64,000 bases of DNA, from NCBI GenBank assembly GCA_035601575.1, contig DATNNZ010000051.1, positions 2,148 to 66,147 of the forward strand. The letters are read 5' to 3'. The notes under the pieces were generated by a model that made no database searches, was not told where the DNA came from, and saw only the letters and a program-made list of their open reading frames with translations. The position numbers and the translations under genes are program-made. Numbering within the stretch: position 1 is the first letter of the stretch; every line of letters begins with the position of its first letter. Shown here in pieces: positions 23,382 through 41,001 of the stretch. This DNA is from Chthoniobacterales bacterium. GTDB taxonomy: Bacteria > Verrucomicrobiota > Verrucomicrobiia > Chthoniobacterales > JAFAMB01.

Positions 23382-23948
23382 GTGAAGCCAAAAGATAACA
23401 AATCGCGGGCGAGCGTAGGCGTCCTGCTCGGTGCAATTGCTTTCGTGATAGGAGCAATTTTGACCTGGGTCATTCTCACACAATTGTCCGGGCGCTTTCC
23501 AGCCTCTCCGTCGAGAGAAAAAGACGTTCTTCCGGATGTCTCCATGCTCGCTCCGAGCCAAAGCGCGGTGATTCTGGGCAACTGGTATTTCGATCATCAT
23601 GAGTGGGCCAAGGCGACCGAACAGTATCGAAAAGCGATCAGTCTTGGGTTGGACAATGCCGACATTCGTTCCGATCTCGGTAGTGCGCTCCGCTTCAACA
23701 ACCAACTGGAAGCGGCGGCGGCTGAGTACGAAACCGCGCAACGCGAGAACCCAGAGCACGAAAATAGTTTGTTCAACCTGGCAACCCTTTATCTCCAATC
23801 CTTAAATCAGCCCGATCGTGCCGTCGCGGTTCTGGAACAATTCAAAGCCAGGTTTCCCCGCAGCGGAGCGATTCCGCGTGTAGACGAGCTTCTCGAAGAG
23901 GCAAGGAAGAAGGGAGCGGCGGTGTCGCCCACGTCGGGTAACGGCTGA
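23382..23948 (+). CDS. membrane-anchored TPR repeat protein
   Basis: N-terminal TM segment followed by TPR-like repeats (AKATEQYRKAISLGLDNADIRSDLGSAL..). Confidence 0.7.
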   Translation: MKPKDNKSRASVGVLLGAIAFVIGAILTWVILTQLSGRFPASPSREKDVLPDVSMLAPSQSAVILGNWYFDHHEWAKATEQYRKAISLGLDNADIRSDLGSALRFNNQLEAAAAEYETAQRENPEHENSLFNLATLYLQSLNQPDRAVAVLEQFKARFPRSGAIPRVDELLEEARKKGAAVSPTSGNG

Positions 23949-24115
23949 GTACCGGATCAGAATGCAGAATCTCGAATCCAGAAGGTAAGATCTAGGATTT
24001 AGAAGCCAGCGTGGATACTCCTCTGGCAGTTAGGACAAAGCAGTCCGGTAAGCGTTGTGCGCCAACATAGCTAAACGGCGTACTGTGAGCCGCCGCCTTC
24101 ATCTGGCTTACACGC

Positions 24116-24253
24116 TTGGCTCACACATCCTCTCGCTGTCGCTCGACGATGTGCCGCCGTCGCTGCGCTATGGCGCGCCCTAGCCATGCAGTCAAAGAAA
24201 ATCACCAGACCAGCCGCGACGCAGGCTTGGCGGAGTCGGATTTCGCCCTACCT
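24116..24253. repeat. island repeat element, copy 1 (direct repeat of 30805-30942)
   Basis: 24116-24188 is identical to 30805-30877 (73 nt). The next ~61 nt are about 80% identical by eye. It ends in the TCGCCCT motif. Confidence 0.95.
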
Positions 24254-24297
24254 TTCCGCCTGTATCGCCCTACCTTTTCTGCGTGTTTCGCCCTGTC
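24243..24297. promoter_or_regulatory. three iteron-like TCGCCCT(A/G) motifs at 22-23 bp spacing
   Basis: tcgccctacct occurs at 24243 and 24265, and tcgccctgtc at 24288. The same motif recurs at 26339, 26380 and 30932. Confidence 0.45.
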
Positions 24298-24326
24298 GGG
24301 GCGTGCTACAATCGTCCTTCCCGTTT

Positions 24327-26186
24327 CTAAAGCCACCGTCTCCAGAATGGGTACCAGGAGGGCGTGTTTCCATCCGCATCGACCGGATGGATTCGTCTCT
24401 TGCGATAGCCTTTTTCGCAATGTTTGACGATCGCCGTGAATTTGGGCAGCGACATCAATTCGAACGGTTTAATCAGATATTCCTCTTCGCGGGTACGAGT
24501 TGTACTGTGGCTACCACGGCCGCGAGTGTAGGATCGTTTCCAGATCATTCGTTTTCCGATGAAATCAGCGGAGCTTTCCGCACACGCCCGGTCGGCCGCC
24601 TTGAAAATGATACGGTTTCGTAAATTAAGAATAGTGACTTCCGCTTTTTCCTTCGATCCGAGGGCCGGCAGAAATGAAAGTTTCGATTGCGCCGCAAGCA
24701 CTGTGGTCGTCTGCGCCTGGCGAATAACATCGACATTGCCGTCTGATTCAGTAATGAAACGTTGAGCTTCGTCTTGCCAGCAAACCAAGAGGTTATCGTC
24801 TTCGAATTTCCGGCTTCCAGGTGGCCGTGGATCGAACCGGCGCAAAGCGTGAGTATAAAAAAGGAGTTTGAGAATCGTGGTGATATAGCGGCGTTCGGTC
24901 TGATATTTCTGGGGCAAGGAGACGCAGATGATGGCGCCTTCATCCAAAGCCGCAAATTCAAAACTATTCTCCTCCGCACCGAATACTTCGCTAATCTCAG
25001 GATTGGTGAAGTAATTAAGATAATTGTAGATCGTCGAAATCACGCCCCCGAGCTGTTCCGCCGGTTGATGCAAAAACCCGTTCAGGAAATGATCGTAACA
25101 TTCGCGAGCGTCCGGATTACCTGCATTCTTTAGCGGTTCCAGTTGTTGAAGCATCGCCCTGAGCACCGGTTGATACTGCAGCATTTCCAGGAGGTGGTGC
25201 ATTGTTGGCACCAGCCCGAGCAGCCGAAAAAATTGGATTCCTCGTCCGATATTCGCGTGGGCCTGGGTTTTGAAAAAACCCTTATCTTCGGTGCCAGAGG
25301 TCAGAGATGAGGCGGTATCAACAATGACGGTTGCATAAGTCGACCATGGTATCGTTTCATCGGAGAGGAGATTAAAGCGGGTCGGCGGGGTCCAATCTTC
25401 AGATACGCGATCCGGTCTGGTTTGCAGAAGTAACAGATCCTGTTCGCGTCCGTATCTCTTAGCCATCTTCACCAGCGTTTCGTGATAAATTCCCTTCTCA
25501 TCACAACAGAGACCTCCCCAGTCTGGCTCATTCCGAAAGACGCTGTGGAGCAGAGCATTGATGGCAAACGTTTTTCCAGCGCCGGTATCGCCGGTCACAA
25601 GCCAGCCACGGCAGAAATCGTTTCGATCCCAATGAAAACCGGCCAATGAAGCGGAGATTGAAGTGCGAGAGCGTCCGGCCGCGGAGTAGAAGGCGAGGGG
25701 TAGACTAACCAGGATCGGAGCGATGCTGGCCCAGCCAATGATCGGGTAAAAAAACCAGCTGAAACTAAGTAGTATGCCCGCGAGCAGCAAGACCGTGGGC
25801 GAGAACAAAAAGTCGAATCGTTCCCTTTGGCGTTCCGCGTCGATCCAGCGCCGTGCTCGATCGACTGCCCGAAAGAGCGACGTCTCGCTCGCGACGTAAC
25901 GACGCACATAGCAAAGCGTGCCGCCAAAGCGAATCTGCAGAAGAAAACGAGGAAGCGCGATTGTCCCCGTATCGCCGGACCGGACGAGCGGAAACAAAGG
26001 CTTTGCGCGAATCTGAAAGCCTGACCGTTGATCGACCTCGACAAAGGCGGTTCCGGGCGAGTAGTTAGGCAGCCGCAGGATGGTCCCGTCGGGTCGACGA
26101 TAAGAAAGCGGATCGGGAAGCTCGGAATTGACGAAGCGTTCAGAGCGCTGGAAAGGATTCCCAGTAGTTTTCGCGCTTTCCCACAT
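24327..26186 (-). CDS. type IV secretion coupling protein-like P-loop ATPase (TraD/TraG/VirD4-like) with an extra N-terminal domain
   Basis: Walker A VTGDTGAGKTF and Walker B LLVCWQDEAQRF. Two TM segments precede the ATPase, after a soluble stretch of roughly 130-160 aa (depending on which start is used). The track ORF starts at 26273; I prefer MWESAKTTGNPF at 26186 because it aligns with the truncated paralogue. Confidence 0.6.
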   Translation of the reverse strand: MWESAKTTGNPFQRSERFVNSELPDPLSYRRPDGTILRLPNYSPGTAFVEVDQRSGFQIRAKPLFPLVRSGDTGTIALPRFLLQIRFGGTLCYVRRYVASETSLFRAVDRARRWIDAERQRERFDFLFSPTVLLLAGILLSFSWFFYPIIGWASIAPILVSLPLAFYSAAGRSRTSISASLAGFHWDRNDFCRGWLVTGDTGAGKTFAINALLHSVFRNEPDWGGLCCDEKGIYHETLVKMAKRYGREQDLLLLQTRPDRVSEDWTPPTRFNLLSDETIPWSTYATVIVDTASSLTSGTEDKGFFKTQAHANIGRGIQFFRLLGLVPTMHHLLEMLQYQPVLRAMLQQLEPLKNAGNPDARECYDHFLNGFLHQPAEQLGGVISTIYNYLNYFTNPEISEVFGAEENSFEFAALDEGAIICVSLPQKYQTERRYITTILKLLFYTHALRRFDPRPPGSRKFEDDNLLVCWQDEAQRFITESDGNVDVIRQAQTTTVLAAQSKLSFLPALGSKEKAEVTILNLRNRIIFKAADRACAESSADFIGKRMIWKRSYTRGRGSHSTTRTREEEYLIKPFELMSLPKFTAIVKHCEKGYRKRRIHPVDADGNTPSWYPFWRRWL

Positions 26187-26300
26187 GGAGGAAACAGTAG
26201 TCGATTGACATATAATAACAAGCCAAAAGATAGTTGCGTAATATTTACCCTGGTTGCGACCGATGGAGTCCACGTGTCGCTCAAAATCCGGGGAGGTGCC

Positions 26301-26349
26301 GGCTCACACAGCTTTCCCGCTTTCGCTCGAGCTGTGTGTCGCCCTACCT
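26301..26349. repeat. island repeat element, copy 2 (short, degenerate)
   Basis: ggctcacaca..cgctttcgctcga..tcgccctacct shares both ends of the 24116 and 30805 element but lacks the middle. It lies about 115 nt upstream of the coupling-protein start. Confidence 0.6.
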
Positions 26350-26399
26350 ATCGTGCTTCCACCGCGCGCTGCTGACTGGTCGCCCTCAGCTAGTTCTGG

Positions 26400-27386
26400 T
26401 TACTGGACCTTTAGTTCTGTTACAAAAGACTCTTCACCTTTGGCAAATGCGATCCAAACCGAGTGCGTCTTCGGGTCGACGGCGAGCGTGTGGGTGCCGG
26501 CCGGAGTCGCAACGTCGCCGAGCGATTTTGCGGCTTCCTCGGTTTCTTCCAAGACGGTGAGCTTTCCTTGTCCGGAGGCACAGTAGATACGCTGGTTTCC
26601 GGGATCGAACGCGATCTGATCCACTCCTTCGGCGATATCGACTGAACCCAGCGATTTTCCAGAAACAGAGTCCAATACAACCAGTTTACCGTTTTTTCCG
26701 GCGGAAAACAGCCGATGGGTTTTCGGATTGAAGGCTAAGCCGTGAGGGCCCTGGGCTGGGATTGTTGACCAGGTAGCCGCGACCGAATTTGGTCCGGGGT
26801 CAATGACCAGCGTGACCGGTTGAGACTTGATGTTCTGAAACACCTTGTCACTGATCGGATCGTAGACAACGAACTCCGGATCGGCTGGAATTTTGATGGC
26901 GGTGACGATTTTTTTGGTGCTTGGATCAACGACCCAAAGGTCTTGTCCATCGTCATGGCAAACGTAAACCAATCCATTCTTTGGGTTATAGGCGAGCGCA
27001 TCGGCTGGTCCAGGTAACGAGACCGTGCCGGTTATCTCGAGAGTCTGACGATTAATAATCGCGAGCTTATGCTCGGCGCTGATACTGGCGTAGTACTGGT
27101 TGTGATCGTTATCGACCACGGCTCCCTGGATCGTACCGGTACTCACGCTCTTGATCAGCTTTCCATCCGGAAGACTGATGATATCCAAGGTTTTGTTGCC
27201 AGTGTGAGCGGCCAAAAGGCGATTCAATTTTTCATCGACTTGCAGGTAATCAAATCTTCCCTTGGTTCCGGGCAAAGCAATTGGCTGACCGAGAGTTAAT
27301 GGTGCGGGCTCAGCCAAAAGTGCTGTTGGCAAAGAGAGCACGAAAACCGCGATGGAAAAGCAAGCGCTTGTAAGGTTCGTTTTCAT
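26400..27386 (-). CDS. secreted YVTN/YncE-like seven-bladed beta-propeller protein
   Basis: Signal peptide and repeated ~40-aa blades (..G..P.G.A.D......YV.....). It begins 22 nt downstream of the TonB-dependent receptor. Confidence 0.7.
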   Translation of the reverse strand: MKTNLTSACFSIAVFVLSLPTALLAEPAPLTLGQPIALPGTKGRFDYLQVDEKLNRLLAAHTGNKTLDIISLPDGKLIKSVSTGTIQGAVVDNDHNQYYASISAEHKLAIINRQTLEITGTVSLPGPADALAYNPKNGLVYVCHDDGQDLWVVDPSTKKIVTAIKIPADPEFVVYDPISDKVFQNIKSQPVTLVIDPGPNSVAATWSTIPAQGPHGLAFNPKTHRLFSAGKNGKLVVLDSVSGKSLGSVDIAEGVDQIAFDPGNQRIYCASGQGKLTVLEETEEAAKSLGDVATPAGTHTLAVDPKTHSVWIAFAKGEESFVTELKVQ

Positions 27387-27408
27387 GATGATGTAGTTCG
27401 ACCGAGTA

Positions 27409-30219
27409 TTAAAACGTAAACTTCATTCCTGCCTCGTAAGTGAAATCGTAGTACTCCTGCTGGATCACGCGATCGCGTCTACCTTCATAGATTCGCCAAG
27501 GCGCATCGGTCAGATTCTTGACGTTGAAATAAACACCGACGCCGTTAGCAAAGGTGTAGCTCGCCGCGAGATCCAGGGTCGTTCGAGCATCAAAGTACAG
27601 GTCCGTTCGGGAGCTGGCACCCACCGAGCTCAGATTTTTGTCGGTATGTTGCGCCGCTAAGGTGACGTCGATACCGTACTTTCGATAGAAAATGCTCCAG
27701 TTATACAAATTTCTTGAGGTGAAAGGGAGTTGGGTCGTTTCGCCCGGACGCGCTTCACCTTGGCTATCAACGTAGGTGTAGTTGAACCCGGCTCCGAACC
27801 CATTCAGCGGTCCAGGTAGAAAAGCAAACTGCTGTTGGTAATTAAACTCCACTCCTCGAGCGTGCGCATTTGGGCTGTTGAGAAAGGTTGATTCGTTAAA
27901 GGTTACCCCGTTGATCGGGACGCGAATGGTACGGGTAAAGATGTAGTCCGAGAACTCCTTATCAAAAAAAGCGACGGTGACCAAGGCGCTAGGTGCTGGG
28001 TAATACTCTAGCGTGAGATCGAAGTTGTTGGCGGTGGTCGGCTTGAGGCCGGGATTGCCGGTGACAATCGTCTGGTTGCCTACATTGGTAGTGGACGATG
28101 CAGTGACTTGATTGAAAGCTGGGCGACCAATTGCGGTTGAGTAGGCAAAGCGCGCTTGCAGATTGTCGAGGATTTCGTATCGGGCTTGGAAGGTGGGAAA
28201 GTAATTGATGTAATTGCTGTTCCGGTTCACGAAATGATAGGACGCGGGATTATTAGGATCCGAGCCGGGGGAATTCTCGTTTGCTCCGTAGGTGGCATCC
28301 GTTGCTTCGATCCTTAGTCCGCTGAGCAAGTTCAATTTGCCGAAAGAGATGTCGTACTGGAAGTAACCGGCATAAACGTTCTCGAAGTCATCGAAAAACG
28401 CTTTTCTGCTGGCTACCTGATCGGCCACAAAGCTGCGAACAAAATTGCCGCGATTGGCATCAAAGAATTTACTAACGAGGCCGAAGTCGGGCGAAAAGCC
28501 GAGCTTGTAGTTACCGCTGTAAATGCTGTTGAACTGGTTGCGCGTTACGTCGGCTAACGTGAACGCTCCATTGAAGGCAGTGTAAGTCTCTGGATCGTTG
28601 TAGGCACGCTTAGTCCGGAAACGCAGATTGGTCCCAAATTTGAAGATGCTCGGAAAATTGAAAATCGTGAATGGAACCGTTACATTCGCGCTTCCGGCGA
28701 TTTCCGTATCGGTTGATCCGTTATTATCAAACGATAACTGGTTAAAAGAGTATTTTTTGGGATCGAAAACATCGGAGCCAGCCAGCAGGAACTGCGGTTG
28801 TCTCATGAGTCCTTGGTCGTTGTAAGATATCGTCACATCAGGCTTGGTCACAAAACTGATGTTGGTGTCGCGCGGATTGTAGTCAGTGGCTTGGGCAAAC
28901 GAGCCCTTATAATCGATAATGAAGGGACCCAGATTATTTTTACCGCCTCCCTGCACGATCCAGTTATCAAAATGTTCTTCGTTGTGGCGAATGTTGGAAT
29001 TGAGCTGCGCATCCTTTACCAGAAAGTTGCCCGGGTGTGTCGGATCGTTTTGCGGTTGGAAAAAAGTGCTCCCGTCCGGATTCGTGAGTTGGGTTCCGCT
29101 GCCGTTTGAGCCGTCGAGACCCGAATAATTTTTTATCTGCCGGTCCACGCTTTCCACATAACCAGCATTCACGAAGCTGATGTAGTAGCTGTTTTTGCTG
29201 TCCGGTCGATAGTCGAAAGTTGCTCCGTAACCGTGTAATCGTCGGTTGTATTGGTAACGCCGTAAATCAATGCTGCTCAGGATTTTGTCGGCACCAATTG
29301 GCTGTTTCGAGTCGGCAAACGCTGGTTCAAAATCATCAACCCCGCGCCAATCTTCGTAATAGCTGAATTGACCGAGTACGCCAAAGGGCCGGGGATTGGC
29401 GAGACCTTCGCCGCTGCCTGCGTTTTTTGTATCGATCCCTTTCCCGTCCTTAGAGGTTTCATCAGGGGCGCCTGTCGAATTCGTGGGCGACGAATAGGAT
29501 GAAGCCAAAGGATTCCCTCCAGGTCCTAAGCCGAAGCGAAAACCGCCGATGATTTCGCCATTAATGATTTGATAACGGGGCCGGAGCGGTTCGTATCCGG
29601 TGCCAACGCGTCCTTGGAGGATCGGTTTATCAGAATCGAAGGCACTCCGCGGGGTGAGTTCGATTTGTCCGCCCAAGGCTTCGGCGTCCATCTCCGGCAG
29701 GTTGGTGTCGAACACGGTAATTTGGCTCACCAATCCGGATGGGATCTGGTCAAACGCGACATGCCTTCCGGTCGAATCGGTTGATGGAACTCGCACGCCA
29801 CCAAAAGTGACACCGACCAAGTTGGAATCTAAGCCGCGCACGGTTACAAAACGTCCTTCACCGGTGTCGTTCTGTACGCCGACGCCAGGCAACCGTTTCA
29901 ACGAATCGGCGAGATTCACATCGGGATAGTGGGCAATCTCTTCGGCGGATTGGACTCGCTTGATATTGGGGGCATAGCGCTCCTGCTCGATTGCGGACTC
30001 CTGCCGCGTGGGATCTTCTGCGGTGACGACGACCTGCTCGAGATGGCTCGACGGCGTTGGCGATGCATCTTGTGCGACCGCGGAATGCGGGATCGAAACG
30101 AAGAGCGCCCCCGCCAGAGAAACAAAAATAGGCAGCGATGGCTGCGCAAAAAGTACTTTACGTAGTTTCACGAACCCGGTCCTTCCCCAGATTGGTTTGA
30201 GAGGGTTTAAAACCGACAA
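27409..30219 (-). CDS. TonB-dependent outer-membrane receptor
   Basis: Plug domain (DSLKRLPGVGVQ, FVTVRGLD), a long beta-barrel, and a C-terminal ..YEAGMKFTF. The true start may be the GTG at 30171 (VKLRKVLF.. signal peptide). Confidence 0.9.
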   Translation of the reverse strand: MSVLNPLKPIWGRTGFVKLRKVLFAQPSLPIFVSLAGALFVSIPHSAVAQDASPTPSSHLEQVVVTAEDPTRQESAIEQERYAPNIKRVQSAEEIAHYPDVNLADSLKRLPGVGVQNDTGEGRFVTVRGLDSNLVGVTFGGVRVPSTDSTGRHVAFDQIPSGLVSQITVFDTNLPEMDAEALGGQIELTPRSAFDSDKPILQGRVGTGYEPLRPRYQIINGEIIGGFRFGLGPGGNPLASSYSSPTNSTGAPDETSKDGKGIDTKNAGSGEGLANPRPFGVLGQFSYYEDWRGVDDFEPAFADSKQPIGADKILSSIDLRRYQYNRRLHGYGATFDYRPDSKNSYYISFVNAGYVESVDRQIKNYSGLDGSNGSGTQLTNPDGSTFFQPQNDPTHPGNFLVKDAQLNSNIRHNEEHFDNWIVQGGGKNNLGPFIIDYKGSFAQATDYNPRDTNISFVTKPDVTISYNDQGLMRQPQFLLAGSDVFDPKKYSFNQLSFDNNGSTDTEIAGSANVTVPFTIFNFPSIFKFGTNLRFRTKRAYNDPETYTAFNGAFTLADVTRNQFNSIYSGNYKLGFSPDFGLVSKFFDANRGNFVRSFVADQVASRKAFFDDFENVYAGYFQYDISFGKLNLLSGLRIEATDATYGANENSPGSDPNNPASYHFVNRNSNYINYFPTFQARYEILDNLQARFAYSTAIGRPAFNQVTASSTTNVGNQTIVTGNPGLKPTTANNFDLTLEYYPAPSALVTVAFFDKEFSDYIFTRTIRVPINGVTFNESTFLNSPNAHARGVEFNYQQQFAFLPGPLNGFGAGFNYTYVDSQGEARPGETTQLPFTSRNLYNWSIFYRKYGIDVTLAAQHTDKNLSSVGASSRTDLYFDARTTLDLAASYTFANGVGVYFNVKNLTDAPWRIYEGRRDRVIQQEYYDFTYEAGMKFTF

Positions 30220-30485
30220 GCAGACCCTAGAGTCACCGGATGCGATTTTGTGGTCACATTGATGAAGGGGAGTGACCGGCGTTGCAAAATGAGGGACTTC
30301 AGAAGACTATTTTTTGTCATAGCTGCTTTATCTTGAACGGTGTTGGAGGTTGGACCTGTTCAGAGTGAAGGACGCGGCATCGCCACGTCGTCCACCCATT
30401 TTCGCGGTACTAGAAACCAAGATTGGAATGGCCGGCTCTTTTTGATCCAGTTGCCGGAATTGTTGTCCCAACTGCAGTTCGGACG

Positions 30486-30734
30486 TTAAAAAAGATTTAT
30501 GACATCCGAAGGGGCGTGCCGGACTGAGCCGAACTTACGGCGCCGGCAGCCTGGTAGTGTCCCTCGAGCTCTCGGCCGGGGCGCTAAAGCCCAGCGACGG
30601 CGGCCTGTCGATTGGTTCGCCAGCCGCAGGGTGGCTCCGTCCGGTCGACGATAAGAAAGCCGGTCGGTCAGCTCTGAACTAGCGAAGCGTTCAGAATGGT
30701 TGAAAGGAGTTCCAACGTTTCCCCGTTTTTCCAA
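30486..30734 (-). pseudogene. truncated 5' fragment of a second coupling-protein-like gene
   Basis: GTPFNHSERFASSELTDRLSYRRPDGATLRL aligns with GNPFQRSERFVNSELPDPLSYRRPDGTILRL of the 24327-26186 protein. Nucleotide homology runs about 30623-30715 versus 26070-26165 and then stops. Confidence 0.7.
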
Positions 30735-30804
30735 ACGGAGGAAAGGTTAGATGATTGGGTATGAAAACAAGTCGCGCTACCAATCATCGCAAGATCGTGC
30801 GGTG

Positions 30805-30942
30805 TTGGCTCACACATCCTCTCGCTGTCGCTCGACGATGTGCCGCCGTCGCTGCGCTATGGCGCGCCCTAGCCATGTAGTCAAAGAAAGTCACAAGACC
30901 GGCCGCAAGGTAGGCCCGGCGGAGTCGGGTATCGCCCTGTCT
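30805..30942. repeat. island repeat element, copy 3
   Basis: See copy 1. It lies about 70 nt upstream of the truncated coupling-protein fragment. Confidence 0.95.
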
Positions 30943-30978
30943 CTCTTTGGGCGCGTTCGCCTCCGGTTCGGCGATAAA

Positions 30979-31416
30979 TTACTTACCCCAGCGGTTTACG
31001 ACGGCGTTGGTAACGGCTTCGCGAACAGCTTCGTGTCGCATTGCCCACTGGAAATGATAAATCGGATTTTCGTACTGTTCGGCGAATTCACGCTTCATTG
31101 CTTCTGCGATGCGGGTCGAATCGACTGGCCCTCGCATTCGAGAGACCACGTCCTCGACGATTTCCAAGCAATACAAGATCAGCATCTTTGCTGCGCGCTG
31201 AGAAATATCATCGAGCTCTTCCGTACACACCAAAAAGAAGTTTTCCCAAGAAACCTTTGTGACGCCTTTGAGCCACTGCTCCTTCCCCTCATAAAACACT
31301 CCTTGTTTTCTGTAATTTTCCAGAAAATCTTCCAAACTGAGTGGTTGACCATTGCTCGAGAATGACCATTTCTGAGTTTCTGTCGAGATTTGGCGAGATT
31401 CCTTAGTGGCAGCCAT
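30979..31416 (-). CDS. hypothetical protein, paralogue of 32263-32865 (unrecognised family)
   Basis: It shares ENFF.V, L..YCL and H.F..A.RH..VR.AV.NA..NRWG with the 200-aa protein on the other side of rep. That paralogy supports this strand over the antisense track ORF 30751-31365. Confidence 0.6.
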   Translation of the reverse strand: MAATKESRQISTETQKWSFSSNGQPLSLEDFLENYRKQGVFYEGKEQWLKGVTKVSWENFFLVCTEELDDISQRAAKMLILYCLEIVEDVVSRMRGPVDSTRIAEAMKREFAEQYENPIYHFQWAMRHEAVREAVTNAVVNRWGK

Positions 31417-31485
31417 TTTATTGCTTCTCTTATTGACTAATTCGGTTAAAAGATTCTTGTAACACCCTACCCCAGAGAAAGTAAA

Positions 31486-32220
31486 GTGCGTAAGTATAAC
31501 AAAGTTTTCGGAACGTTACCACTATCGAATCGGGAGGATCAGCTTGGTTTTGGTGACGATCTAATCGAGGCCTACTATAAGCTGACCAAAAACGAACGCA
31601 GCATCGTGATGTCGATCGTCGACCGATTGAAACCCGGAGTGACAGCATTTGAGTTTGACGATTTTGGCCTGCAGTCGGCGGCGCTTAAGCTGCTGACCTA
31701 TCATCGACTGGTTCTACATAATGGAGATAAGCAGAATTCGGTGCTCTATGCGCGCTGGCTCAGTGCCATCACCATGGTAGAGAAGAAGATGATTCTGCAC
31801 ATCGATCCAGGATTACACCGCCATCTTGAGCGCCTTAAAGACCACCAGAGAGAAGATGCGGAGCGATCGTCGGTGAAGTTGGCCAGCCAGTACTCGATTC
31901 GTCTGTACGAATGGGCTTGGAAATGGCGCAACGTGGGACTAAAGCGAATCTCGATACCAAAAATTCGCACAGTTCTCGGCGTGGACGAGGTGCGTGATGC
32001 TCAGGGCAATATCGTGAGCGAGAAATGTTTGGTTCATTGGCCTAATCTCAAGCAACGCGCCATCGATCGGGCCTTGCACGAGATCAATGAAAAGACCGAC
32101 CTCGGGATCCGTCTGGTTGCGGTTGGACAGGCTAAGTATCGGCGGGTGCTCTCGCTCGCCTTTGAGATCAAGGAGAAAAAGAAGCGCACCCGAGGGAACG
32201 GGGCGGCATTGACTAAGTAG
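31486..32220 (+). CDS. plasmid-type replication initiator, Rep_3 (RepB/initiator replication protein) family-like
   Basis: DDLIEAYYKLTKNERSIV near the N-terminus, then SQYSIRLYEWAWKW..GLKRISIPKIRTVLGV....NLKQRAIDRALHEINEKTDLGIRL....KYRRVLSLAFEI. This matches the Rep_3 pattern as I recall it. Confidence 0.65.
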   Translation: MRKYNKVFGTLPLSNREDQLGFGDDLIEAYYKLTKNERSIVMSIVDRLKPGVTAFEFDDFGLQSAALKLLTYHRLVLHNGDKQNSVLYARWLSAITMVEKKMILHIDPGLHRHLERLKDHQREDAERSSVKLASQYSIRLYEWAWKWRNVGLKRISIPKIRTVLGVDEVRDAQGNIVSEKCLVHWPNLKQRAIDRALHEINEKTDLGIRLVAVGQAKYRRVLSLAFEIKEKKKRTRGNGAALTK

Positions 32221-32262
32221 AGTCAGAAGGTCGTTCCACGGTGCGAACGGCCAGCCGAAGAC

Positions 32263-32865
32263 GTGTTCGAAGGGAAACAAATGGGCGACTCACATAAGAA
32301 CTCGCCGGAAACCAACGGAAAAGGATTGAACGCCGATGAGATTCTTGCGCTGCGAGAGTTGCGGCTCAATTATCCGTATAACTTTGCTGAGCCGCCCTAC
32401 CCTCAGATCCATTGGCAGCTATTCGAATTGATCGATCATGCATCCTTCCCATTCGCTAAAACGGATGCCTGTGACAAGTGGAACTGCAGAGAAATCTCGC
32501 CAGAAAACTTTTTTCAGGTTCTCGATCGGGATCGATTGGATGAGCCGCGGTTTTTGAGTGCTTTGACGGTTGGCAAGCTGGTTTGCTACTGCCTTTTGGT
32601 GGCTGAATCGACCAGTGAATCGTTCCATATAGTGGCGGAGGAAGTTGAGCTTCGAGCCGATACTCTGTTGGAGCGAATTCGGTTGAATGCGGAGTATCTT
32701 AGCCTTGGGATCGAAGAACACTCGCCCTGGCACCAGTTCTTTGTTGCTGTCCGACACCCCGTGGTGCGTTGGGCCGTGAACAATGCTTTGATGAACCGTT
32801 GGGGCGCGGAACGCTACCCGGTCAGCAGCCCGTCCGCTCTAGCAATTGAGCCGGACGGTAGATAG
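32263..32865 (+). CDS. hypothetical protein, paralogue of 30979-31416
   Basis: Same conserved blocks as the 145-aa protein. The start could instead be the internal MGDSHK. Confidence 0.6.
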   Translation: MFEGKQMGDSHKNSPETNGKGLNADEILALRELRLNYPYNFAEPPYPQIHWQLFELIDHASFPFAKTDACDKWNCREISPENFFQVLDRDRLDEPRFLSALTVGKLVCYCLLVAESTSESFHIVAEEVELRADTLLERIRLNAEYLSLGIEEHSPWHQFFVAVRHPVVRWAVNNALMNRWGAERYPVSSPSALAIEPDGR

Positions 32866-32975
32866 CGAATTCAGGTGAGAAACAGGCGGTCGTGCCGCCT
32901 CCGCTCTTCGAGCTGCGGCGAGCCCGCAGAGACAAGGCCGCGCCAAAGCGAAGCGACGGCGGGGTTGACAGGCTG

Positions 32976-33323
32976 TTAGAAAATCTCCGATTTTTCCGAT
33001 AACGGCTCCATTAAAATACGGATGCCGATCTGATCTCCAGCGGGGATCGAGGCGACACGAAAATTGGCGAGCTCCTCAAGCAACTGCCGGCGCGCGGTGA
33101 AGGCGCGGCCCAGGGTCAATTCCACATCGGCAAATGTATAGCGAAGAATGATTGACTTCTCGCCGTCGGTATCGATGCATTGGAGGTATGCATACGGGAT
33201 GCACTTCGTTCGCGGAGGTGACGCTAACTCAAATGTGCAGGCAATGCCGGCATGATTTCCGGCGTGCGTTACATACGGTTGGTTTTCAGGCCGAAGAATA
33301 GGTATGGCTCTCGACACGGACAT
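32976..33323 (-). CDS. hypothetical protein (orphan)
   Basis: An ORF with no recognisable motif. It lies downstream of folC on the same strand. Confidence 0.35.
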   Translation of the reverse strand: MSVSRAIPILRPENQPYVTHAGNHAGIACTFELASPPRTKCIPYAYLQCIDTDGEKSIILRYTFADVELTLGRAFTARRQLLEELANFRVASIPAGDQIGIRILMEPLSEKSEIF

Positions 33324-33393
33324 GTAACCGGTTGGCAGTTTCCGAGTACCGCAAGCGGTACCCGACTTACCACGATTGCATTTGTTTCATCAA

Positions 33394-34614
33394 TTATTGC
33401 GTACTTTTTTCAAAAATACCAAAATCAGGTTCGAGCCAGGCGAGCGCTTCGCCGACAAGATAGAGCGATCCCGTCACCAGGATCGGGTCGGGGAGAGTTC
33501 GTGCCTGATCGATGGCGGTTTTTACATTGGGGTAAACTGTGCTCGGCAAATAACTTGGAGCTTTGAGGTCCGAAGGAGAGGCAGATCGATCGTTTTGTAC
33601 CGGCACCAGGAAAAAGCCGCTGGCGATTTGGGACAATGCTTCGAGCATCTGTGAGAGGTTCTTGTCCTTCAAACCGCCGAAAATGACGGTCGGTGTCGTG
33701 CCGCGGTGACATTCCTTCCACGTTTGTACCAATTGCCAACTTGCCGCCGGGTTATGTGCGCCGTCGAGGATCAGATTGGGCGCCACCTGCTGGAACCTTC
33801 CTGGCCAGAAAACGGAGGCCAGGCCGGTCGTAATCGCCTGAGGAGAGATAGCAAGATTAGCCTGGGCGAGCGCGTCGACCGCCACAGCTGCGTTTAACTG
33901 CTGACGAGATCCGGCCAACGCGAGGCGAAATGGAGGAGAGGGAAATTCTGCGTATTGGATCTGAGTGTCGTGGCTCTGTGCGACTGATTCAAACACTCGA
34001 CAAACTTCCGCATATTGGGGAGCCGAGACGACCGGCACCCCTTGCTTGATGATGCCCGCCTTTTCCCGAGCAATCTCGGCGAGAGAATTTCCCAAGATCC
34101 TTTGATGGTCCAGATCTATTGACGTCAGGACGGAAACGATTGGCATGACGATGTTAGTAGCGTCGAGCCGTCCACCCAAGCCGGTTTCTAGAACGACGAT
34201 ATCAACCGCGGATTTGAGGAAATAAAGGAAAGCCAAGGCCATCGTGATCTCGAAAAACGATGGATTTAAATCATGTTCTGAGATCAAGGCCTGAATTTGG
34301 TTGATGCCACGAATGACCTCCTCGTTTGGGATAGAGCGTCGGTTCACTTGAATTCGCTCGTTGTAGCGGACCAAATGCGGCGAGGTGAAGAGTCCGGTCT
34401 TTAGTCCGGCCGCACGACAAATCGATTCGAGCATCGCGCACACCGAACCTTTGCCGTTGGTCCCGGCGACATGAACGAACCTCAACGATTGCTGCGGATT
34501 TCCGAGGACATCAGCTAAAGCTTGGATTCCCGCCAGACCGAGTTTGATGCCACGGGTCTGGGTGCCGTAGAGCCAGCTCAGCGTGTCGTCCAACGCTTTC
34601 TTAGATGGTGACAC
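33394..34614 (-). CDS. folC: bifunctional folylpolyglutamate synthase / dihydrofolate synthase
   Basis: Mur-ligase-type P-loop HVAGTNGKGSV and overall FolC layout. Sits in accD-folC order. Confidence 0.9.
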   Translation of the reverse strand: MSPSKKALDDTLSWLYGTQTRGIKLGLAGIQALADVLGNPQQSLRFVHVAGTNGKGSVCAMLESICRAAGLKTGLFTSPHLVRYNERIQVNRRSIPNEEVIRGINQIQALISEHDLNPSFFEITMALAFLYFLKSAVDIVVLETGLGGRLDATNIVMPIVSVLTSIDLDHQRILGNSLAEIAREKAGIIKQGVPVVSAPQYAEVCRVFESVAQSHDTQIQYAEFPSPPFRLALAGSRQQLNAAVAVDALAQANLAISPQAITTGLASVFWPGRFQQVAPNLILDGAHNPAASWQLVQTWKECHRGTTPTVIFGGLKDKNLSQMLEALSQIASGFFLVPVQNDRSASPSDLKAPSYLPSTVYPNVKTAIDQARTLPDPILVTGSLYLVGEALAWLEPDFGIFEKSTQ

Positions 34615-39478: not shown

Positions 39479-40375
39479 ATGAGCGCCAAGATTCTTGCTT
39501 TTATTAATTTCAAGGGCGGAGTCGGTAAAACTGCGAGTGTTGTCAATCTCGGGGCCACCTTGGCTAAACTTCACGAAAAGAAGGTTCTGATCGTTGATCT
39601 TGATCCCCAGTCGAACTCCAGCCTTTGGCTCATGCGGCCAGACCATTGGCGAGATCACGTGGCGAAAGGGCGGCGTTCGACCTACCAGATTTTCGACGAT
39701 GCCATCCAGGGAAAATCCCGATTTAATTTTGAAGAATCGCTGGTCAAGGGAGTGGTTACCTGGACCGGCTTCGTCGAGCTACCGCGCTTGCATCTTCTGC
39801 CCGCATCGGTCGAACTGCTTCGGATAGAAGACCGGATTCATGAGCTGCGAGCACCCGGCGTTTATCGGCTGGTTGAGCATGCCATAGCGGAACATGTGAA
39901 GGCTTACGATTTCATATTTTTTGATTGTCCGCCCAACCTGTACAGCACTACCAAGAACGCGATTTTTTTCGCCGATCACTGCGTAGTCCCGTATGTGCCG
40001 GATTACTTGTCGCTCTCTGGTTTCCAAGTACTGGCCGAGTATATCACGGAGATGAGAGAGAGGTACGGTGATTCGATCGGTGGCGGCAAACGTCCGAATA
40101 TTGGTGCTCTCTTGGTCAGCCATTATCGCCAAACCGGGAACGTCTTCCGCCTCGCCATCAATGAACTAGAGATAGAGTTGGCTTCGTTCCGTGACCAAGG
40201 ATTTGTGGATGGAGATGCCGCGCTACTGGAGCCGTATGTGCGTCATTGCGTGCGAGTAGCAGAGTCCACGAGTGAGCATCTCCCCGTCGTTTTGTATGCG
40301 CCTGGCAGCATTGGAGCTCAGGACTATAGCGATCTAGCTCAGCACTTTCTTAATCACTTCCAAAACCGACGATGA
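39479..40375 (+). CDS. ParA/Soj-type deviant Walker-A ATPase (orphan)
   Basis: ILAFINFKGGVGKTASVVNLGATLA, VLIVDLDPQSN, and FIFFDCPPN motifs. Confidence 0.85.
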   Translation: MSAKILAFINFKGGVGKTASVVNLGATLAKLHEKKVLIVDLDPQSNSSLWLMRPDHWRDHVAKGRRSTYQIFDDAIQGKSRFNFEESLVKGVVTWTGFVELPRLHLLPASVELLRIEDRIHELRAPGVYRLVEHAIAEHVKAYDFIFFDCPPNLYSTTKNAIFFADHCVVPYVPDYLSLSGFQVLAEYITEMRERYGDSIGGGKRPNIGALLVSHYRQTGNVFRLAINELEIELASFRDQGFVDGDAALLEPYVRHCVRVAESTSEHLPVVLYAPGSIGAQDYSDLAQHFLNHFQNRR

Positions 40376-41001
40376 ACTATCTCGATCTTTCGACCAGGCT
40401 AACGAATTTGGCAGAGAAGCTCAGCAAGCAAGCAACGAAAATCGAAGGCAATGACGCGGCGAAATCTGCCATGAAACTGGTGACCGAACTCGATCGTTTC
40501 GAAGCTGTCCTGGATAGCTTTTTGGCCAGCCGGAAATCCGGAGAGTTTTTTCTCGAGACACTGCTTCGTTCGCCTTCGGCGAAGAGACATTTATCGCTCG
40601 ATCTCCTCAAGAAAGGGCTCCGGGAGATCTGCGGGAAGCGCCTGAAGGCGGAAGAATTTGGGCCGGCAAAATTAGAGTTCGTAGAGACGATTCATGCCCA
40701 GGACAAATCCGCCGCCGCCGCTAAATTTTTGAAACATGCGTTTGCCGAAGCCGCTTCCGTTGAATCTGGCGGAAAGGATAAGGCGGCCTTGCAACAGGAG
40801 TTTATTCAGCTCGGCCGGTTGAACGAAGAAGAATTTGCCAAAACAATAGCCAAACGGACATTCGGAGAACTGAGACGATTGGCCGGTAGCAATGCAGTGC
40901 GTTTTACGGATAAGACGACTAAACCGCGTTTGATCCAAGTGATCCGTCGTTTCTCCGTCCGCGCGGCAATCAATGCTACCCCGATCCACCTCAGTCGATA
41001 A
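40372..41001 (+). CDS. hypothetical helical protein translationally coupled to the ParA-like gene
   Basis: ATGA overlap with the ParA-like stop. K/E/A-rich and predicted alpha-helical. No ParB N-terminal or HTH motif recognised. Confidence 0.55.
   Translation: MNYLDLSTRLTNLAEKLSKQATKIEGNDAAKSAMKLVTELDRFEAVLDSFLASRKSGEFFLETLLRSPSAKRHLSLDLLKKGLREICGKRLKAEEFGPAKLEFVETIHAQDKSAAAAKFLKHAFAEAASVESGGKDKAALQQEFIQLGRLNEEEFAKTIAKRTFGELRRLAGSNAVRFTDKTTKPRLIQVIRRFSVRAAINATPIHLSR

Follow-up and report, generated by a model that had tools for sequence, protein, structure and literature searches.

Why would a bacterial chromosome keep the gene of a plasmid-type replication initiator, and why would that gene stand between two copies of a protein that matches no known family? 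The question is raised by 64,000 nt of DNA from a Chthoniobacterales bacterium of the Verrucomicrobiota (GenBank assembly GCA_035601575.1, contig DATNNZ010000051.1, positions 2,148 to 66,147), a stretch that is called the window here at its whole length of 64 kb. Near its middle lies a short Rep_3 gene (rep, encoding Rep). The gene of a 145-aa protein, p145, is divergent from rep across a 69-bp spacer, and the gene of a 200-aa protein, p200, is co-directional with rep and begins 42 bp downstream of it. An earlier reading made from the letters alone (the sequence-only reading) had described these three open reading frames (ORFs), and their positions and orientations are confirmed apart from the start of p200. 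It had also supposed that the two proteins serve a plasmid-type replicon. The locus is chromosomal, and a module that once belonged to a plasmid seems to have been turned to the cell's own ends. The Rep_3 family itself is known; what is new is the p145/p200 protein family in a chromosomally exapted variant of the Rep_3 backbone. A literature search found no description of this module.

The proteins on the two sides of rep are genuine paralogues. Based on BLASTP, p145 and p200 are 33% identical over 107 aa (E 2e-9), and the alignment holds the three blocks that had been picked out by eye, namely ENFFLV/ENFFQV, LILYCL/LVCYCL and the C-terminal H.F..A.RH..VR.AV.NA..NRWG. Based on profile-profile comparison of the two orthologue alignments (hhalign), the probability is 98.6% with E 1.2e-15, and the 138 aligned columns cover nearly all of p145 and not just its C-terminal part. 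A profile merged from both proteins recovers both types. In an exhaustive hidden Markov model search of 1.84 billion cluster representatives, this family accounts for only 74 clusters at E <= 1e-3. Of the p145 orthologues, from 161 database clusters, nearly all are exactly 145-146 aa long and at least 72% identical.

The sequence-only reading did not recognise the family, and neither did our searches. Against Pfam, NCBIfam and PHROGs both proteins gave only sub-threshold, chance-level matches, 19 diverse family members had no Pfam family in common, and the best match of the merged profile to PDB sequences had E = 1. The AlphaFold2 model of p200 is all-helical (mean confidence, pLDDT, 83.9; pTM 0.79), and Foldseek searches with it returned best E values of 1.0 in PDB and 1.2 in BFVD. 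The isoelectric points (pI) are 5.5 for p145 and 5.2 for p200, compared with 9.9 for Rep. We conclude that p145/p200 is an undescribed, all-helical, mildly acidic family. Nothing was found in favour of the partition or anti-defence role that had been suggested for it: PADLOC gave only weak matches for p145 (E 0.006-0.012) and none for p200 or Rep.

One family member departs from the usual size. P0197 (L and P numbers are our labels for loci and proteins; this gene lies at L044 6044-7168) has 374 aa and consists of two tandem p145/p200-family domains, each ending in NALHSRWG. The fusion of two domains in one protein suggests that two family copies pair. The P0197 gene adjoins a divergent HTH_3 (XRE-type) gene on a contig of 65% GC. 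No Rep_3 gene was called on this 7.96-kb contig, which stops about 0.8 kb downstream of the P0197 gene.

Rep_3 proteins are textbook plasmid initiators, and the assignment of the 244-aa protein to this family stands. Both of its domains score above the Pfam gathering cut-offs (PF01051 and PF21205): Rep3_N with 30.1 bits against 22.4 (residues 25-143) and Rep3_C with 27.4 bits against 21.1 (residues 184-228). The NCBIfam RepM model matches partially and below its cut-off (60 bits), the RepE and PHROG replication-initiator matches are also partial, and the match to the R6K pi protein (2nra) is weak (E 0.021). Based on tblastn, about 1,500 annotated plasmid initiators align to Rep, all at less than 60% identity; in the records listed, identity is 27-30% over 85-91% of the length, with E values down to 5e-13.

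The linkage between the two families is nearly obligatory, as the sequence-only reading had anticipated. A divergent short Rep gene lies directly upstream of 80 of the 81 p145-type genes, and a co-directional one directly upstream of 70 of the 76 p200-type genes (genes with enough flank, counted over all loci, which are phylogenetically non-independent). Three of the exceptions carry a long Rep and iterons instead of the short Rep.

The setting of these genes in the nearest relatives is chromosomal. We define clade A as the loci with the order T4CP-like gene (T4CP, type IV coupling protein), p145 (-), rep (+), p200 (+, where present), p115, folC, accD, comF and rce1; this order was constant across all loci mapped with tblastn. 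When one genome per GTDB species was scanned, the p145 gene was found in 36 genomes, all of them metagenome-assembled genomes (MAGs) of Chthoniobacterales/Verrucomicrobiota, on contigs that reach 5.04 Mb. The same module order occurs in dozens of soil contigs, and contigs with p200 orthologues have the same triad at the same site beside folC-accD-comF-rce1. In the window, the cassette is flanked by tsaD and genes for a 5'-3' exonuclease and an S41 protease, and by folC, accD, comF and a class III aminotransferase gene. The module keeps one site, one gene order and one orientation even in relatives with housekeeping proteins that are only 50-60% identical. Every genome of the clade has Rep and p145, each in a single copy, and Rep is 78-96% identical across clade A. 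The GC content of the module (0.52-0.54) does not shift from that of its surroundings. No tRNA or integrase gene was found in the window, and no relaxase gene or att-like boundary at the module. Neither paralogue had a tblastn match at E <= 0.01 in 72,556 sequenced plasmids (PLSDB) or any match in IMG/VR. Given the fixed folC-accD site across relatives, contigs of up to 5.04 Mb and housekeeping flanks, we conclude that the window locus is chromosomal and that the module is fixed at one site and inherited vertically. The idea that the window holds a plasmid-type replicon which the two proteins serve is thus not supported, and most of the loci recovered lie in non-mobile contexts, which the sequence-only reading had itself named as counting against its proposal.

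Within clade A, the two paralogues differ in how firmly they are kept. p145 and Rep are never absent, and p200 is cleanly missing from a subclade of about 15 loci, in which only about 20 nt separate the Rep gene from p115. The p200-less loci are L016-L020, L023, L024, L028, L030-L032, L035, L040 and L042; p145, Rep, p115 and the T4CP-like gene are kept in them.

Selection on the genes differs in strength. We estimated the ratio of nonsynonymous to synonymous substitution rates (dN/dS, Nei-Gojobori) against three relatives at which synonymous sites are unsaturated (dS 0.4-0.9); a few T4CP and p200 values were invalid, with saturated dS or a wrong segment aligned, and were ignored. The ratio is 0.007-0.015 for p145, 0.027-0.031 for Rep and 0.14-0.15 for p200. 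Among the other genes it is about 0.05 for AccD, 0.05-0.08 for ComF, 0.08 for the T4CP-like gene, 0.07-0.10 for p115, 0.105-0.108 for FolC and 0.13 for Rce1. Identities between the window and more distant clade A genomes are 78-84% for Rep, 72-81% for p145, 60-72% for the T4CP-like protein, 46-61% for p115 and 39-51% for p200, next to 73-79% for AccD, 51-57% for FolC and about 55% for ComF. Purifying selection on p145 and Rep is stronger than on accD or folC.

The locus lacks the marks of an iteron origin. A functional iteron initiator is expected to have an array of 17-22-bp direct repeats, usually together with AT-rich DNA, beside its gene, and repeat searches found no iteron array at 30220-33400 of the window and none next to rep that is conserved in clade A. 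In four mobile-type loci described below, these tools pick up clear iteron arrays. Tandem repeats around rep were considered as iterons and rejected, the sporadic arrays in L020 and L034 not being conserved. No repeats were found in the p145-rep spacer, which is too short for an iteron origin. In the window, GC skew to the left and right of rep is +0.050 and +0.042 when measured over 9 kb, and +0.048 and +0.041 at 30 kb. None of the 20 long clade A loci shows a change of sign across rep either. On these two grounds, constant-sign skew and missing iterons, a chromosomal origin at the locus was rejected. With rep placed on the plus strand, the skew is positive in the window and in all 20 loci. 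Since this holds in every locus so oriented, rep is oriented in one way relative to the G-rich strand, presumably the leading one, in the whole clade.

More distant relatives, retrieved with the exhaustive profile search and a metagenome scan, are found in two other settings. In the mobile-type loci (L045/L046, L080/L082, L126 and L128) a family member is divergent from the gene of a long Rep_3 protein (450-603 aa), with iterons between the two. Iteron number and length differ: 11 of about 20 nt in L045, three units of 41-43 nt in L080/L082, seven of 21 nt in L126 and six of 21-22 nt in L128. A TrwC relaxase gene follows in three of the four (L082, L126 and L128), and L082 also has a ParA-like gene. 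L045 and L082 carry an extra short Rep that is 35-36% identical to that of the window, and where both reps are present the iterons lie upstream of the long Rep gene (450-462 aa), not of the short type. The contigs of P0162 and P0204 were too short to be informative. Based on these loci, with their long Rep_3, iterons, family member, TrwC relaxase, p115-like and ParA-like genes, the p145/p200 family likely began as a backbone component of mobile replicons of the Rep_3/iteron type.

In clade B, the same divergent/co-directional triad occupies a different chromosomal site. Identity to the window is about 41% for p145, 30-38% for Rep and about 30-36% for p200. On the 120-kb contig of L081 we noted by eye ORFs that we take to encode succinyl-CoA synthetase alpha, a citrate-synthase-like protein, leuA, recJ and recG. 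The clade B triad is followed by genes for a secreted protein (weak CagX-like match), a DUF4388 (PATAN)/FGE-sulfatase protein, an MglA-like small GTPase, a pilin-like protein and a PilT-family ATPase. Clade B loci with this PilT/pilin operon are L081, L056, L087 and L118-L120, and clade B also carries a T2SSF (PilC-like) gene. A DUF4388/FGE-MglA-like-pilin-like-PilT operon recurs in clade A, immediately past the T4CP-like gene at about 20 loci (including L010-L012, L015, L021, L022, L025, L027, L063, L108, L114 and L117); it is not found in the 64-kb window. In L048-L051 of clade B the triad is degraded and p200 stands alone beside a GNAT acetyltransferase gene; L048 has a chimeric ORF with an MglA-like N-terminus and a p145-like C-terminus.

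Two further genes complete the clade A module. The 648-aa ATPase has the sequence features of a type IV coupling protein (VirD4/TraD/TrwB): matches to TrwB_AAD_bind (39.9 bits, cut-off 20.5) and TraG-D_C (32.6 bits, cut-off 22), a hydrophobic stretch at residues 155-200 that could hold two transmembrane helices, and, at residue 228, the Walker A sequence GDTGAGKT. It is highly divergent, with 28 bits to the NCBIfam VirD4-like model against a cut-off of 250, and had no match among PDB sequences. Its gene lies directly downstream of p145 in nearly all clade A loci. As for a part in conjugation, neither the window nor the clade A loci yielded a relaxase or type IV secretion system (T4SS) gene within the module and its flanks.

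The fifth gene, p115, follows p200, or rep where p200 has been lost, in clade A loci. Its product has no family match in Pfam, NCBIfam or PHROGs, and its AlphaFold2 model (pLDDT 45) is too poor for a fold search. It is homologous (29% identity, E 7e-8) to the product of a gene of 109-115 aa that follows the family member in L045 and L082. Among the mobile-type loci such a gene stands there only in L045 and L080/L082, and L128 has a 211-aa gene in this place. In L082 the p115 homologue is immediately downstream of the TrwC relaxase gene, with which it is probably co-transcribed. Relative to the window, the p115 gene is inverted in clade A loci L001, L012, L013, L015, L101, L107, L117, L122 and L123, and it is present twice in L010 and L026. 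The p115 clusters P0254 and P0259 share a longest-contig figure of 70 kb and may be one contig.

We give somewhat better than even credence to the following explanation as a whole: a plasmid-derived module that is fixed in the chromosome, with p145 as the partner of Rep and p200 as a spare duplicate. The five genes (T4CP-like ATPase, p145, short Rep_3, p200 and p115) would have come from a plasmid and settled beside folC-accD, the chromosomal module having shed the iterons, long initiator, relaxase and ParA seen in its mobile-type relatives. The short Rep_3 would most likely no longer fire a local origin and would more probably act as a sequence-specific double-stranded DNA-binding protein. 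The pI of 5.2-5.5, against 9.9 for Rep, points to p145 and p200 as partners rather than DNA binders, and so do the P0197 fusion of two family domains and the precise absence of p200 from a subclade that keeps p145 and Rep. p145 would be the obligatory partner of Rep, as a homodimer or as a heterodimer with p200, and may control the oligomeric state or activity of Rep, or bridge Rep-bound DNA to the membrane T4CP-like motor, or both; p200 would be a dispensable, diverging duplicate. The position of the T4CP-like gene next to p145 in nearly all clade A loci suggests the link to a DNA motor, and this ATPase, perhaps together with the PilT/pilin operon, could form the effector arm.

Several points weigh against this explanation. 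The T4CP-like gene was not seen beside the triad in clade B, so the coupling of Rep and T4CP may be specific to clade A or coincidental. The extreme conservation of Rep and p145 would equally fit an essential role in replication, and the missing iterons and skew switch argue only against a classical bidirectional origin at this spot. The plasmid-like contigs have no terminal overlaps and so do not show circularity. No recurrent operator sequence was found near rep and in the other module spacers, and the fold search with p200 in PDB and BFVD yielded no functional analogy. The contact of p145/p200 with Rep (or with the T4CP-like protein) and the cellular role are steps that we infer.

Other explanations are taken here in descending order of probability. 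The first, possible but in our estimate unlikely, is a DNA-processing machine domesticated from a conjugative plasmid by this abundant soil lineage, in which Rep_3 would mark specific DNA, p145/p200 would be adaptors and the T4CP-like membrane ATPase would move that DNA, in chromosomal DNA export, import or segregation, with the PilT/pilin/MglA-like/PATAN operon joining in most relatives. Such a machine would be a bacterial counterpart of the archaeal Ced/Ted systems, which are domesticated conjugation machinery, but built around a replication initiator and not around a relaxase.

We are more doubtful that the short Rep is a transcription factor, with p145 as its co- or anti-regulator, controlling the T4CP-like gene and the PilT/pilin/MglA-like/PATAN operon. 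Rep_3 dimers such as RepE and pi are known autorepressors, the divergent putative promoter of 66-71 bp is conserved and compact, and PilT/pilin/MglA-like/DUF4388-FGE genes adjoin both about 20 clade A modules and the p200 of clade B, in differing arrangements. However, the operon is absent from the 64-kb window, where Rep and p145 are equally conserved, and no shared operator motif was found; 9-mers common to the rep promoter and other intergenic regions were rejected as operators because they are scattered chance matches. This reading overlaps the exapted-module explanation and differs from it only in output.

Still less probable is that Rep_3 is a working chromosomal initiator, of an auxiliary or replacement origin or an integrated replicon, whose loading, handcuffing or monomerisation is regulated by p145/p200. 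It would account for the conservation of Rep and p145, which is as strict as that of essential genes or stricter, for their single copy in every genome of the clade, for the constant placement of rep on the G-rich strand and for the position of the mobile relatives directly beside iteron origins. Against it stand the lack of an iteron array, both in the window and as a conserved feature of clade A, spacers too short for an origin, the constant sign of the skew in the window and 20 of 20 genomes, and the plasmid-like relatives with both reps, in which the iterons belong to the long and not the short Rep.

We consider it improbable that the module provides chromosomal immunity to, or incompatibility with, related iteron plasmids. 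In that case the resident short Rep, together with its partners, would target an entering plasmid by binding or handcuffing its origin or by sequestering its long Rep, and the T4CP-like protein would act in exclusion. Genes for defence and exclusion normally evolve fast and vary in presence, unlike Rep and p145, which are nearly frozen and universal; Rep and p200 have no PADLOC match, and the locus lies outside variable islands. In favour are the plasmid-type relatives with short and long Rep_3 in the same kind of soil samples, a weak PADLOC match of the T4CP-like protein to mad8 (E 6.8e-8) and a precedent, Rep-mediated incompatibility, which is established for integrated elements such as Salmonella genomic island 1 (SGI1; PMC7433901).

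Finally, it is very improbable that the locus is a plasmid or integrative mobilizable element which integrated recently or still moves, and whose replication, partition or anti-defence the paralogues would serve: although Rep_3 and T4CP-like genes are hallmarks of mobile elements, related plasmid-type loci exist, repeats flank the cassette and a rearrangement occurred at the locus, such membership was rejected and is largely refuted by the identical site, order and orientation, together with the absence of integrase, relaxase, tRNA, att-like boundary and iterons, a GC content equal to that of the surroundings, dN/dS of p145 and Rep far below that of neighbouring genes, repeats that are genome-specific and absent from relatives, and paralogues that match nothing in PLSDB or IMG/VR.

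Comparison with known systems places the exapted module apart from each of them. Rep resembles the initiators of iteron plasmids (RepE of F, pi of R6K, RepA of pPS10, RepM/RepA of Acinetobacter) in both winged-helix domains and in size, but its gene is chromosomal, single-copy, vertically inherited and under very strong purifying selection, and lacks adjacent iterons, an AT-rich origin and a skew switch. In position, the paralogues most resemble OrfX of Acinetobacter, where Rep_3 backbones carry repA with upstream iterons and a conserved downstream orfX of unknown function (PMC13141974). The likeness lies in a conserved gene that is co-directional and just downstream of the Rep_3 gene and that marks out a backbone type; no homology is detectable. 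The module described here has a pair of paralogues, of which one is divergent from rep, lacks iterons and sits in a chromosome. In the PLSDB set in which p145/p200 matched nothing, the Rep query matched 707 Acinetobacter plasmids.

With the backbones of MOBF-type mobilizable or conjugative plasmids (TrwC, the T4CP TrwB and accessory DNA-binding proteins) the locus shares two features: distant family members lie between a Rep_3/iteron origin and the TrwC gene, and the window module keeps a T4CP-family ATPase. It differs in that the Rep-module loci of the window and clade A have no relaxase, T4SS, oriT candidate or ParA. SGI1 is likewise a case of a plasmid-type initiator gene in a chromosome; its Rep has a RepA_C domain, it carries int/xis, oriV and four 17-bp iterons, and it is a mobile element that excises (PMC7433901), whereas the module described here has Rep_3 instead of RepA_C and none of int/xis, iterons, oriV, excision or mobility.

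A Rep_3 protein frozen in a chromosome without an origin, and more tightly constrained than accD, is a clear candidate for the exaptation of an initiator, in a host lineage that is common in soils and hardly accessible to genetics. The p145/p200 family is an almost obligatory companion of Rep_3 in chromosomal and plasmid settings and, in four mobile-type loci, of iteron origins. Plasmid biologists thereby gain a new candidate that may regulate iteron initiators or serve as their adaptor. The hypothesis of a Rep partner linked to a coupling-protein motor can be tested with recombinant proteins and needs no culturing.

Table 1 Features of the module and its surroundings (positions in the window)
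Feature	Position	Strand	Evidence
T4CP-like (VirD4/TraD/TrwB-type) membrane ATPase, 648 aa	24327..26273	-	Pfam TrwB_AAD_bind, TraG-D_C
Lineage-specific insertion that splits the module (two genes)	26400..30219	-	Pfam hits
WD40/beta-propeller-like gene, 328 aa	26400-27386	-	Pfam
TonB-dependent receptor gene	27409-30219	-	Pfam
Decayed second copy of the T4CP-like gene's 5' end	30599..30771	-	blastn, tblastn
134-bp direct repeat, 92% identical to 24116-24249	30805..30938	.	blastn self-comparison
p145, short ultra-conserved paralogue, 145 aa, pI 5.5	30979..31416	-	ORF, BLASTP, profile-profile
p145-rep divergent spacer, putative promoter region, 69 bp, 33% GC	31417..31485	.	
Short Rep_3 (WH1-WH2) protein, 244 aa, pI 9.9	31486..32220	+	Pfam Rep3_N, Rep3_C
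p200, longer, faster-evolving paralogue, 200-aa ORF, pI 5.2	32263..32865	+	ORF, BLASTP, profile-profile
p115, fifth conserved module member	32976..33323	-	Synteny across clade A

The true start of p200 is most likely the ATG at 32281, which would give 194 aa, because a database orthologue that is 99% identical has 194 aa and the orthologues align from that methionine. The p145-rep spacer is 66-71 bp long in all clade A loci (spacers were extracted from 43 loci) and contains two blocks conserved in all of them, TAACA[CT] and GTAAAGTGCG, the latter of which includes the GTG start of rep. The remaining intergenic spacers of the module measure 39-180 bp. A promoter and terminator scan of the locus gave scores no higher than those of shuffled sequence, and an Rfam scan of 23900-33500 returned nothing at E <= 1. 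A 204-aa ORF at 30751-31365 (+), antisense to p145, is most likely spurious, since the p145 frame is the conserved one, with dN/dS of about 0.01.

The window departs from the usual clade A layout in that the T4CP-like gene is displaced from p145 by the insertion with the beta-propeller and TonB-dependent receptor genes. Elsewhere in clade A this insertion occurs only in L090, a contig that is 97-99% identical. The displaced gene is nevertheless the counterpart of the one found beside p145 in relatives, its product being 82% identical to that of the p145-adjacent gene in L002. A 173-bp decayed T4CP copy beside p145 is 75% identical to 26046-26222 (blastn) and matches T4CP residues 28-74 (tblastn). 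The copies of the 134-bp direct repeat lie downstream of the T4CP-like gene and of p145. We attribute both the decayed 5' copy and the 134-bp duplication beside p145 to the insertion and rearrangement.

The 134-bp repeat carries a GC-rich 23-nt motif, GCGCCATAGCGCAGCGACGGCGG, which occurs four times in the window where none is expected, always at this locus: at 24154 (-), 30581 (+), 30843 (-) and 32940 (+). It was not found in L001-L006. The 23-nt and 28-nt repeats were considered as terminal inverted repeats and rejected, as they belong to the genome-specific 134-bp duplication and local rearrangement and are absent from relatives. The motif and duplication could represent a genome-specific repeat resembling repetitive extragenic palindromes or miniature inverted-repeat transposable elements (REP/MITE-like), or the footprint of a rearrangement.

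About 7 kb to the right of rep, the window encodes a ParA/MinD-type ATPase (AAA_31/CbiA, 298 aa) followed by a 209-aa gene without a family match (39479-41001). This pair has no evident tie to the Rep module, and its synteny is kept in clade A (L001 16266-, L004 13761-15206).

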